Shown here piece after piece: positions 1,232 through 63,992 of a DNA stretch of 64,000 nt. Position numbers and translations under genes: made by a program. Position 1 is the first letter of the stretch. Each line of letters begins with the position of its first letter. Origin of the DNA: Eledone cirrhosa (lineage: Eukaryota); assembly GCA_964016885.1 (NCBI GenBank), contig OZ024756.1, positions 38,750,001 through 38,814,000 on the forward strand, given 5' to 3'. A model generated the notes under the pieces. That model was given only the letters and a program-made list of their open reading frames with translations. It did no database searches and was not told where the DNA came from.

Positions 1232-1490
1232 AATTGGTGTTGGATGGTTAAAGCGTCCATATACGGTAGGCCGTTTGAGCACTCGATGGTCTCACCGAGC
1301 AGAGTAGGATATCACAAAAAGAGAATCAGTGTTGCGACGAATGGAATTTATTGGACATATTACAATCGTTTCTCTGGGTCAGGTTCGATCATCACATCGA
1401 TCGTGCCTCGAGCCGGTCGCCAGGGAAACGATTGTAATATGTCCAATAAATTCCATTCGTCGTAACACTGATTCTCTTTTCTGTGATATA
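1232..1490. mobile_element. Fold-back element beside (TA)n with about 70-bp inverted arms (family G)
   Basis: About 1308-1377 and about 1420-1489 are inverted copies; each arm read outward contains GAAAC-GATT-GTA, like the 3' half of a hammerhead; the left arm has about 75 nt of extra tail; a related fragment lies at about 28786-28840. Confidence 0.7.
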
Positions 1491-2601
1491 TGTGTGTGTG
1501 TGTGTGTGTGATTATGTAAACTTGTCCATCCCACATACATTTCTATGAATCCGGTGTTTATAATCACAGGATTTGATGGAAGAAACAAAAAACAGAAAAT
1601 GTGTCTGAGAAATTTTTATGGAATTTCACAAAATATTCCATTGAAACAAACAAAAAAAAGCTTTTTCTATTGGTTTGTCTGTTGGTGTGTATATATGTGT
1701 GTATATATGTGAGGGTGTGTTGATGTAACATATGTGTGTGTATATAGGTGAGGGTGTGTTGGTATATATGTGAGTGTGAGGATGTGTTGGTGTATATATG
1801 TGTGTGTGAGGGTGTGTTGGTGTATATATGTATATATATATATATATATTTATATATATATATATATATATAATGGTCTGTTGGTGTATATATATATATG
1901 TGTATATGTGTGTTAGGATGTGTGTGTTAGTGTGTTGGTATATCTGTGTGTTAGTGTGTTGGTATATGTGTGTTAGTGTGTTGGTTTATGTGTGTGTGTG
2001 TTAGTGTGTTGGTATATGTGTGTGTTAGTGTGTTGGTATATGTGTGTGTGTGTTAGTGTGTTGGTATATGTGTGTGTTAGTGTGTTGGTATATGTGTGTG
2101 TGTGTTAGTGTGTTGGTATATGTGTGTGTATATGATTGCTCACAATTACCTAGGCCTGTTTTAATGTATAAGAAACTGTAAGTATAAGTACATAATAATA
2201 TGTGTATATGTGAATGTAACACATGTGAATGTAATACTTAAGTGTATTCATATATACACACACATACATACACATACATATATACGCACACACGTACATA
2301 CATGTGTACATATGTTTTTACACACACACAATTCATCTCTGAATTGACACATATATTATGTACTCACACATTATGTATATACATGTATGTACATGTATAT
2401 GTCCATATATACAACATGTATATATAATACAATGCCAATTATCCATTCTACACACACTGCTGTATAGGTATGTATACTCAGCATAAAAATATAACATGGA
2501 GAACTGTGCTGTTGACTGGGAATAGCAGATGGTGAGAAGTAGAGAAGTAGATTTCAATTACATTGTCTAGACACCATTGTAAACAACATATTATATATAT
2601 T

Positions 2602-2801
2602 NNNNNNNNNNNNNNNNNNNNNNNNNNNNNNNNNNNNNNNNNNNNNNNNNNNNNNNNNNNNNNNNNNNNNNNNNNNNNNNNNNNNNNNNNNNNNNNNNNN
2701 NNNNNNNNNNNNNNNNNNNNNNNNNNNNNNNNNNNNNNNNNNNNNNNNNNNNNNNNNNNNNNNNNNNNNNNNNNNNNNNNNNNNNNNNNNNNNNNNNNNN
2801 N
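2602..2801. other. Assembly gap (200 N)
   Basis: Run of N. Confidence 1.
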
Positions 2802-3408
2802 GTTAACACCTGTTGTACACCACTGTAGCACAGTTAACACCTGTTGTACACCACTGTATTACTGTTAACACCTGTTGTACACCACTGTAGCACAGTTAAC
2901 ACCTGGTGTACACCACTGTAGCACAGTTAACACCTGGTGTACACCACTGTATCACAATTAACACCTGTTGTACACCACTGTAGCACAGTTAACACCTGTT
3001 GTACACCACTGTACCACAGTTAACACCTGTTGTACACCACTGTAGCACAGTTAACACCTGGTGTACACCACTGTATCACAATTAACACCTGTTGTACACC
3101 ACTGTAGCACAGTTAACACCTGGTGTACACCACTGTATCACAATTAACACCTGTTGTACACCACTGTAGCACAGTTAACACCTGTTGTACACCACTGTAT
3201 CACAATTAACACCTGGTGTACACCACTGTATCACAATTAACACCTGTTGTACACCACTGTAGCACAGTTAACACCTGTTGTACACCACTGTAGCACTGTT
3301 AACACCTGTTGTACACCACTGTACCACAGTTAACACCTGTTGTACACCACTGTACCACAGTTAACACCTGGTGTACACCACTGTATCACATTTAACACCT
3401 GTTGTACA
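2802..3408. repeat. 31-bp minisatellite (gttaacacctgttgtacaccactgtagcaca), about 19-20 copies, truncated by the gap
   Basis: Direct inspection of tandem units. Confidence 0.95.
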
Positions 3409-4391
3409 GCATCCCAATATTAGTATCATTCAATTACCAATGGTAGATAACCAATACATATTATATTGCTAATATAATATCATCATCATCATCATCATCG
3501 TCATTATTCCACCTTCTTTTCCATGGCAGGAGTCGTTTAAGAATATTTCTCAGGCAGTTTCTATTGTCAAACCCACTGATTGTTCTCAACCCTCACTCAT
3601 CTTCTTTGTTTCTGTTTTAACCCTTTAACATTTAAACCATATATATATATATGTGTGTGTATGTATGTATGTATATATATATGCATGTATATATATACAT
3701 GTATATATATATATATATGCATACACACATATTTCTATCTCCCTATATACACACACACACACACATTTATCAATCTACTTATATATATATATATATATAT
3801 ATATATATATATATATACATATATATATATATGTGTGTGTATATGAATATATATATATATATACATACACACATATTTCTATCTTCCTATATATACACAC
3901 ACACACACGCATTTATCAATCTACTTATATATATATACACACACATGTAGATATATATAGATATATATATCAGCAGATTGATAGATATAGCAGCAGGCAG
4001 GTAGTATGACAAAGAGACTGATAGATGTTTTGGTATGAAGCAACAGTGAAGATTTACCTGTGTGGCCTTACAGTAGATAAAAGACTTTACCTGTTGAACC
4101 ATCAGTCTTTAATCTCTCTGAATCTGTTTAGTAATTAGAGAGACCATGGCAAGGATAGAGGGGGGGGGGGGGGCGGGATATAGAGAGATGTGGTGTGAGG
4201 TGGTAGAGTGGAAGGTTTTAGGGGGAGTAAGAAACTGAGGAGATAAGGAAGATGAGAGAGGGAGATGCAGTGAAAGGAGAGCTAGGGAGAGAGAGAGAGA
4301 AGGAGACAGTTGGATAGGAGGAGAGAAAGATATAGAAATAGAGAAGAGGAGGAAGTAGGGTTGATGGCAGAAGAAGTGATATATATATATA

Positions 4392-4625
4392 TCATCATCA
4401 TAATCATCTTCGTTTAACGTCCATCTTCCACGCTAGCATGGGTTAAACGGGAGTTATCCCACTTGAGGCAAAGTTGGTCGGGTGACCATGTCTCGCTCAT
4501 ATAGGACTATCTGGCAGGTTTTCTACGGCTGGATGCCCTTCCTAACCCCAACCACGTTTACAGTGTGGAACTGGGAACTTTTTACCGTGTTACCTACACA
4601 ACCACATTACAGCGTGGACTGTGTG
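4392..4625 (-). mobile_element. Common dispersed repeat with (GAT)n 3' tail, likely RTE-type SINE/LINE end
   Basis: (CAT)n-gtttaacgtcc...gctagcatgggtt...ggctggatgcccttcctaac; related copies at about 640-690, 3480-3530, 19330-19570, 21270-21480, 24030-24075 and 27230-27298. Confidence 0.7.
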
Positions 4626-4879
4626 TTTTTTTTTCTCGTGACACCTACACGATCTCGATCTCATTTATCTCATTTATTTGGATTGGATGTTGTGGTACCA
4701 ACTTTATAGAGAGAGGGTGTTGTTGGTGGGAGTGGGAGGATAGGGTAGGGGTAGTGGATTGGGGTGTATATTTGGTTAAGAGGTGCCTACTGACTAGGTT
4801 TCGCTTTGTACATAGGCAAGGCGGGTCTTCTGTATTACTGCGTAGCGCAAAAGATCTTGGTCCAGAGACATTGTCTTAG

Positions 4880-5260
4880 AGAGGTGTAAGTATGTAAGGT
4901 CGGAATTTATCAGATCGTCACAGGTTTTTCTGGGTCTACCTACTCCGTAACTACCATCAATTTTGATCGCCCTGCACTTTTTTTATACAGCTGTCGTCTT
5001 TCATGCGCATCACGTGCCCATACCAACGTAATCTTCTCTCGAGTAAACAGCATCTGATCCCTCTTATTCCTAATTACTATTACACATCCAATGGAGCATG
5101 CATGCTTCATTCCTTTCCAGTCTGCGCAAGTCCTCTGCATGCAATGCCCATATCTCACTGCCATGTAGCATTGCTGTTCGTATACAAGCATCATACAATC
5201 TGCCTTTCATTTTTAGAGAGAAACCTTTTGTGGCCAACAGCGCTATAAGCTCTCTGAACT
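4880..5260 (-). mobile_element. Degraded RTE-clade LINE fragment (post-RT C-terminal region)
   Basis: Translations across frameshifts give KGRLYDACIRTAMLHGSEIWAL...LERNEACML, RRLRWYGHVMRM and GRPRKT, typical RTE ORF motifs. Confidence 0.85.
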
Positions 5261-62473: not shown

Positions 62474-62489
62474 ATATATATATATATAT

Positions 62490-62892
62490 ATATTAAATTC
62501 AAATATTAATAAAATAGATGTTCTTGTGATCAATTAAATTTTATTATACATATTTCAGAGGTACTTGAATCAAGTTCAATAGTACGTCCTCATCAGATAA
62601 AATAAAATGATACATGACATATCCTGACATGTTAAATGGTTAAGATTCAATCAAGGTAATCACTACCTTGATTGAATCTTAATTGTATCATTTTATTTTA
62701 TCTGATGAGGATGTACTATTGAACTTGATTCAAGTACCTCTGAAATATGTATAATAAAATTTAATTGACCACAAGAACATCTATTTTATTAATATTTGAA
62801 TTTAATATTAATAACTCTGGAAAATATCTCACTGTAGAGTGCTTTCAATCTACTGTAAAACTCATTCTTGTTTAACTCTTGTTTAACTCTTT
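62490..62892. mobile_element. Family A fold-back element with two hammerhead motifs (62538-62603 -, 62695-62760 +)
   Basis: Inverted arms span 62490-62808; CTGATGA 62702-62708; GAAA 62742-62745; tail as in 50100-50205. Confidence 0.9.
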
Positions 62893-63197
62893 AAAAAAAA
62901 AAAAAAAAAAAAAATATATATATATATATATAATATATATATATATATATATATATATATAATATATATATATAATAAGTTGATAGAACTAGCATGGGTA
63001 TCACTGCTAATGCCGGTCGCATCTCAGCGTACTCAATAGGTGATGCTAAATAAACTCCCAGAATATACACATAGTTATTCGCTTCAATACAACACACATA
63101 AGCGGGTACCTTCATATATACACACACACACACACACACACACACACACACACACACACACACACACACACACACACACACACACACACACACACAC

Positions 63198-63396
63198 AGA
63201 AGCATTCCCGCTGATAATGACCAGTGACACTCGCTGCAACAGCAACCCCACCACGTGGAGCTTCTCCCTTAGGCGGGCTCCTGATGCCCCGATCTTTCGT
63301 GGCAGCTCGGCAGTAAGAGAGTCGGAGTACGCCCGAGATCTCGACAGACAGCGGGCCAGTGCGAAGAGGAAACGACCGGAGGGCAATCCCCGGTAT
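63198..63396 (-). mobile_element. Second, diverged CRE-like retrotransposon 3' fragment
   Basis: Across frameshifts: YRGL...FLF, PLSVEISG, RKIG...LLLQRVSLVIISGNAS; abuts (CA)n. Confidence 0.65.
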
Positions 63397-63429
63397 ATGT
63401 TTGTCTTCCTTGCTTATTTACCTTATTTG

Positions 63430-63602
63430 TGGATTGGCAGAATCGGTAGAGGGTCGGACGCCATGCTTTGCAGCATAGAGTTACCTTCCAGTTCAAATCT
63501 CGCCGAGGATTGCCTTTCATCCGTACGGGGTCGATAAAATAAAATACCAGTAATGTACTGGGTAATTGTTGGCCTTGTGTGCCAACAGTAGAAACAGTTA
63601 TT
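63430..63602 (+). mobile_element. SINE S1 copy
   Basis: Matches 6774-6960 and 35495-35661. Confidence 0.85.
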
Positions 63603-63924
63603 TGGCAGTTAACTGCTAAAGGCAATATATTTTACAAGATGAAAATCTTCTGGGCGTGCTGAATAAATTATTTTTCTCTCTCCGTTTCTAACATTTGTTG
63701 AGAGAAACATGGCTACTCATGTGGTAAAAGATAACGAATATATTCAGTCACATTTCATGTATTTTGGTGGGCGTCTATCGTAAAATATCCACTTATTTTC
63801 ATCTTATTGGTCGTCTTTAGCAAGACTATAAAAATGCAATTTAAGACAATTAAGCTATATATATATATATATATATATATATATATATATATATATATAT
63901 ATATATATATATATATATATATAT

Positions 63925-63992
63925 AAGAACAGATTAAAGTTTAAGCAAAAAAATCGGTCCTTTCGCCCTTAACAGGATCTTCTAAAACTCAT
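63925..63992 (-). mobile_element. Diverged family C arm next to (TA)n
   Basis: Minus strand gagttttagaagatcctgttaagggcgaaagg...gcttaaactttaatctg. Confidence 0.75.

Follow-up and report, generated by a model that had tools for sequence, protein, structure and literature searches.

Hammerhead-bearing repeats beside (TA)n tracts in Eledone cirrhosa as probable ends of Penelope-like elements

The window analysed here, 64,000 nucleotides (nt) of the 3.0 Gb Eledone cirrhosa assembly GCA_964016885.1 (OZ024756.1, 38,750,001-38,814,000), has plentiful (TA)n runs and many short dispersed repeats that adjoin them. An initial annotation had read these repeats as unrelated, non-autonomous families derived from Penelope-like elements (PLEs), each folding into the same type I hammerhead ribozyme. 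All of the repeats it named (families A, A', C, F, M and N and the repeat at 56185, here family H) were found at their positions, and 15 of the 16 named sites have an end that touches (TA)n or lies no more than about 11 nt from it, as claimed, the exception being the outer end at 49826. Two further families, G (five sites, missed earlier) and B (unnamed earlier), are represented in the window by the 3' half of the hammerhead, with complete motifs in other parts of the genome. The repeats are very probably the hammerhead-bearing ends of at least six PLE families of the Hydra clade that encode an open reading frame (ORF), together with one likely Neptune-type family, present as truncated inserts in (TA)n.

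Cores were compared against the type I hammerhead (CUGANGA or UUGANAA, GAAA, a UH site and stems I to III). A strict descriptor recovered the five A motifs and A', plus a weak extra match at 19809, while a relaxed descriptor gave 10 matches, nine at previously named sites (A five times, A', M twice and F) and an extra at 34759. The same relaxed descriptor found a mean of 0.42 matches and a maximum of 3 in 60 local dinucleotide shuffles. Judged from their sequence, the motifs of A, A', M and F are real, and the claim of a shared hammerhead stands for these families; it fails for C, and the window copies of N and H are damaged. The N copy has CTGACGA and lacks the 3' strand of stem II, a strand that N copies at other loci retain, and the H copy reads TCGATGA where 10 of the 18 rows tallied for its family read CTGATGA. 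Core, GAAA, UH site and stems are all present in A, A', M, F, B and the G2 subtype of G, and at family level in N and H. The full B core is CTGAGGA in 18 of 20 loci, and that of G2, UUGAGAA, carries a U3-A8 swap. The very short stem III described earlier applies to F (ACGU) and not to M, with 4 base pairs (bp) and an 8-nt loop, or G, with about 6 bp. Nor are all the families unrelated: stem III is of one type in A and A', and N matches another two Hydra families at 70-72%. When sequences were folded singly, G2, N (L136) and B took up the hammerhead shape and A, M and F did not, as expected from their weak stems. Across the selected loci up to L220 (0.97 Mb), the descriptor gave 312 matches of more than 20 sequence types, several with U3-A8 cores.

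Family C had been credited with CUGANGA. Its core instead reads CAGAAGA in 51 of the 60 rows tallied, U16.1 is absent, no stem I is found across the family, and the 3' untranslated region (UTR) of C holds no other hammerhead core. The copies are about 98% identical to one another. CTGAAGA, seen in three C rows, was considered as the ancestral core and rejected because each of these rows lies directly at an inversion joint.

Genome-wide searches gave first-look candidates, which are not copy numbers, of 2847 for A, 2662 for C, 651 for G2, 1292 for M, 1106 for N, 3212 for F, 221 for H and 2027 for B; per family, 40 candidates were scored and 10-24 loci retrieved. Longer copies of A, A', C, M, B and G2 are joined to a Hydra-clade ORF for a reverse transcriptase (RT) and a GIY-YIG endonuclease, which bears out the proposed PLE origin and does not support the label "non-autonomous", since these six families are the ends of ORF-bearing PLEs. 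For A the ORF was reached in five loci (L023, L025, L027, L029 and L033). One continuous piece, L087, contains the C short arm, ORF, 3' UTR, C motif, tail and (TA)n in that order, and in L212 the hammerhead end of A' is joined to an ORF in the same layout. An antisense orientation of C relative to its ORF was rejected, as L087 shows the apparent antisense to be an inverted arm. In L224 the M tail continues into the start of a Hydra ORF about 50 nt on, and in L281 B lies after the endonuclease C-terminus, in a stretch common to L282. G2 has an open ORF of 722 residues (L096) and head-to-tail tandems of about 3.53 kb (L213 and L214), in which the tail of one unit is the leader of the next. A unit consists of hammerhead, leader, ORF for RT and GIY-YIG, and 3' UTR, in that order, and units are also found as head-to-tail tandems. 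The window itself has no full ORF of this kind, as stated earlier, yet it does hold a 33-residue Hydra-type N-terminal fragment.

Family F is likely a Neptune-type PLE family, to judge from the sequence of its sister subfamily F2 (83% over 136 nt), which is linked to an endonuclease; F itself is linked only through it. F2 follows this endonuclease in L237 and L252, which we take to be Neptune-type partly from further motifs of that clade; in L252 a CX2-5CxxC linker precedes GIY-YIG and the F2 3' UTR follows, the full ORF not being seen.

Several further observations concern these loci. In the G2 arrays of L213 and L214 (91.47 Mb and 437.20 Mb), no stop interrupts the frame between the hammerhead cleavage site and the start codon, leader included. 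Upstream of the F2 hammerhead in L249 and L239, a pyrimidine tract is followed by CAG and resembles a splice acceptor; some PLE pseudo-long terminal repeats (pseudo-LTRs) carry introns. Loci L182-L211 contain two N-related intact Hydra families (about 712 and 710 residues), one of them with two hammerheads per unit. An endonuclease piece in L164 was considered as a partner of H and rejected, as other sequence separates the two.

All three full ORFs checked contain RW[KR] (RWR in G2), DKT, YRDD, CxCx5C, CxxC and CxH, a YIG/YVG motif lies in the C-terminal part, and the C-terminal Hydra motifs are present in A and C pieces too. The G2 protein model has a predicted local distance difference test score of 92.6, and its top three Foldseek matches are telomerase RTs. 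At E<=1e-20 there are 2062 homologs, the best of which carries PF01541, and a PDB sequence search with the ORFs gave no match. In a genome homolog search, 55 of the 63 scored Hydra-type ORFs, drawn from 92,413 first-look candidates, had no stop. A telomerase-like RT, a C-terminal GIY-YIG in the same ORF (by motifs), tandem and inverted copies, and a hammerhead pseudo-LTR with tail are all found, as is expected of PLEs. On their motifs and their insertion into (TA)n, we assign the ORFs to the Hydra clade.

The anatomy of the short copies was examined in a census of 3' ends taken from copies met incidentally, excluding loci retrieved for the same family. In all five families tested the ends are bimodal, at about +20 and +100 from the cleavage position in G, +41 and +128 in C, +24 and +90 in M, +50 and +140 in A', and +55 and +155 in A. 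Consistent with the (TA)n targeting proposed earlier, (TA)4 lies within 16 nt of 337 of these 438 ends versus 8.4% of random positions. Among 128 head-to-head pairs, counts that include loci picked by similarity, 96 join a long and a short arm, 6 join arms of the same type and 26 have one unclassified arm. TA microhomology of 3-4 nt was present at 10 of 10 hand-picked junctions with known continuation (null 0.15 each). Copies starting within 2 nt of the cleavage position are few (5/195), and in G, C and M the 5' ends concentrate 30-50 nt to its 5' side, a pattern that re-amplification, a length limit or stalling at structure may explain. The short copies are inserts cut short at the 5' end, with 3' ends fixed at two sites, and often consist of a long and a short arm head-to-head. 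By analogy, the pattern agrees with internal priming at two sites as published for PLEs: the Anolis Poseidon element PAc in vitro cuts both strands of AT-rich DNA and initiates cDNA synthesis from two internal positions on RNA that has not been cleaved, its hammerhead being dispensable for insertion (Frangieh 2024, PMC11167929).

Three other explanations for the repeats were weighed. That the hammerhead motifs are chance matches in AT-rich repeats is very improbable. Rfam reports no hammerhead in the window at its gathering score and none among the 150 of 388 matches listed in E-value mode, one of the 10 descriptor matches is an extra, and in C, H and N the core is conserved no more than its flanks. 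This last point is weak evidence, as several subfamilies were pooled and neutral decay affects dead copies, and the 10 matches far exceed the shuffles. The same core moreover recurs within unrelated stems and at the same place in each element, and G2 carries the U3-A8 swap. It is hardly more credible that the hairpins are miniature inverted-repeat transposable elements (MITEs), non-autonomous DNA transposons that enter TA with terminal inverted repeats. Long, near-perfect inverted repeats bordered by TA do suggest MITEs, but the arms are unequal in a fixed manner (96 pairs against 6), the hairpin centres vary, and every arm tested proved to be the 3' terminus of an element coding for an RT. 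Neither symmetric terminal inverted repeats nor a lack of RT linkage was found, and the ORF links largely refute this explanation.

A third explanation, which we consider unlikely though less so than the other two, is that some short forms (F, M, C and G hairpins) are transcribed and re-copied in trans by the protein of an autonomous PLE, and so are true non-autonomous ribozyme elements. In its favour, 5' ends are sharply clustered; about half of 20 F loci begin near one AAGATGG motif, longer M copies have a common 5' boundary, and one C junction is repeated in several of 24 loci. The M junctions, however, vary from copy to copy, the C query itself selected for the repeated junction, and copies of F2 and B occur in many lengths up to the ORF. 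The short copies are also missing the RNA region beyond the distal site, which the Anolis PLE requires in vitro, and they do not form tandem arrays, unlike animal retrozymes. Non-LTR retrozymes were rejected as a class for these repeats because the tandems found carry an ORF, and the short copies are single or head-to-head rather than non-coding and head-to-tail.

The interpretation of the repeats as truncated ends of coding PLEs also has several results weighing against it. Pfam recognised neither an RT nor a GIY-YIG family in the three full ORFs, so that the endonuclease was assigned from motifs and from the homolog with PF01541. Not every family was tied to an ORF of its own. Family H showed no ORF link in 20 loci and 4 widened regions, and the G1 subtype, to which four of the five G sites in the window belong (about 85% to G2), has no ORF tied to it. 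The link of N is one of homology only, with the end sequences of two further intact Hydra families. The pair counts take in loci chosen for similarity, and the N query was itself an inverted insert. None of 20 loci of the window's F subfamily extends past the common 5' point, and none of 24 F loci picked for non-microsatellite continuation read through to an ORF on the 3' side, the link having come from upstream. Finally, the 5' ends of 32 of the 33 G2 copies met incidentally lie 35-53 nt before the cleavage site, a non-random pattern that would also fit re-amplification of short units.

If the repeats are truncated PLE inserts, it is likely, by analogy with the Anolis PLE in vitro, that the PLE protein nicks a (TA)n tract on both strands. 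Reverse transcription would then be primed at two internal sites of the uncleaved RNA, aided by TA pairing of 3-4 nt. The two cDNAs, one per site, likely stop early and would be joined at their ends head-to-head into MITE-like hairpins, while longer cDNA runs would yield full or tandem copies. The predicted role of the hammerhead is to separate tandem transcripts into single units, and insertion likely does not need it. Family C may be informative here. A less probable reading is that this young, abundant Hydra PLE has a fixed, rule-breaking core which either is a new variant able to cleave or proves, in nature, that these elements spread without ribozyme cleavage; together with the strict long and short pairing, TA microhomology and junctions tightly clustered near the ribozyme, the genome would then preserve, in vivo, the traces of priming at two sites on both strands, and its intact young elements could serve biochemical work.

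Elements of this kind are already described. Craig 2021 (PMC8557442) reports 27 Hydra families, including Hydra-1_Obim from an octopus, nearly all preferring (TA)n and most with hammerheads. The elements described there share with ours the single ORF of RT and C-terminal GIY-YIG, the RWK, DKT, CxCx5C, CxxC and CxH motifs, a hammerhead near the 3' end, the (TA)n target and inverted 5'-truncated copies. They are smaller (under 3 kb, against units of about 3.5 kb with 3' UTRs of 0.9-1.9 kb here) and have shorter tails (30-40 nt against 60-105), and the non-canonical core of C sets it apart from them, as does the co-occurrence of many families in one genome, with more than 20 hammerhead types within the selected loci. 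The Hydra-1_Obim hammerhead was absent from the 260 loci searched. In their account of minimal metazoan PLE hammerheads, Cervera and de la Pena 2014 (PMC4209133) describe opposite-strand pairs 100-700 bp apart, assign most motifs, single ones included, to truncated PLEs, and note a U3-A8 variant. Our motifs share those pairs and that variant, the palindromic stem III and an extra base after A9; G, M and N differ in a longer stem III, predicted to allow folding as a monomer. Two fixed end sites that define the tail are shared with Poseidon PAc, although the E. cirrhosa elements belong to a different clade and their junctions have TA microhomology where PAc priming is reported as non-homologous (PMC11167929). 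Non-LTR retrozymes are likewise short PLE-derived sequences with a type I hammerhead, but form head-to-tail non-coding tandems rather than single or head-to-head pieces of coding elements (Li 2026 preprint, 10.64898/2026.07.22.740005). A 2026 paper on Octopus vulgaris repeats mentions neither Hydra elements nor ribozymes in its main text. Our literature search, whose scope did not extend to Dfam and Repbase, found no paper on these particular families. We regard the families as new members of a known PLE kind, not as a separate system of non-autonomous ribozyme elements.

They are still of interest for their scale, their clean two-site signature and family C. The main import is for annotation, as thousands of short TA-flanked hairpins that look like short interspersed elements or MITEs are remnants of a large Hydra-clade PLE expansion that is recent and probably still active. 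Intact G2, with identical copies, an open ORF, tandem arrays and a predicted monomeric hammerhead, and C, with its variant core, form a natural pair for study of the role of the PLE hammerhead. The features in the window are collected in Table 1.

Table 1. PLE-related features in the window (window coordinates)
Feature	Position	Strand	Remarks
Family B head-to-head insert	1232..1491	long arm - up to TA run, short arm +	only 3' hammerhead half here; ORF link via L281/L282
Family C Hydra-type ORF, N-terminal fragment (inverted arm)	5271..5369	-	33 residues; tblastn E=2.5e-5; 92% DNA identity to L087 ORF start
Family C long arm	5378..5535	+	non-canonical core CAGAAGA...GAAA
Family F	6319..6558	-	minimal hammerhead, ACGU stem III
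Family F, decayed copy	23619..23694	+	
Family C long arm	30199..30359	-	
Family C short arm	30423..30490	+	
Family M long arm with hammerhead	30523..30659	-	M tail reads into Hydra ORF start in L224
Family G head-to-head remnant	30689..30806		
Family A short arm with hammerhead and long-arm tail	34546..34881		core 34653 (-); tail 34814-34881 (+)
Family C head-to-head hairpin	39201..39416		
Family G head-to-head hairpin	39472..39669		
Family M short arm with hammerhead	42500..42564	+	
Family G head-to-head hairpin	46401..46618		
Family N head-to-head insert	46722..46924		+ arm: core CTGACGA, stem II strand deleted
Family A head-to-head insert, two hammerheads	49787..50207		cores 49883 (-), 50004 (+)
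Family G long arm	55218..55354	-	
Family H (56185 of the initial annotation)	56147..56273	+	mutated core; no ORF link found
Family A' head-to-head insert	56290..56585		hammerhead core 56386 (-); ORF link L212
Family A' second insert, decayed	56810..57024		
Family G (G2 type) head-to-head hairpin	62273..62473		95% to ORF-bearing unit
Family A head-to-head insert, two hammerheads	62490..62896		cores 62596 (-), 62702 (+)
Family C short arm, diverged	63913..63989	-	

Other sequences were noted in the window. A further family, X (6169-6246 and 25452-25519, both -), has a TA-abutting, F-like tail, and its longer copy in L028 has a hammerhead-like core. One imperfect inverted repeat and two further TA-abutting sequences lie at 34995-35136, 62975-63100 and 56613-56760. 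The segment at about 5085-5250 (-) is presumably a fragment of the RT C-terminus of a long interspersed element, and a mir-34 precursor at 5974-6044 (+) exceeds the Rfam gathering score.

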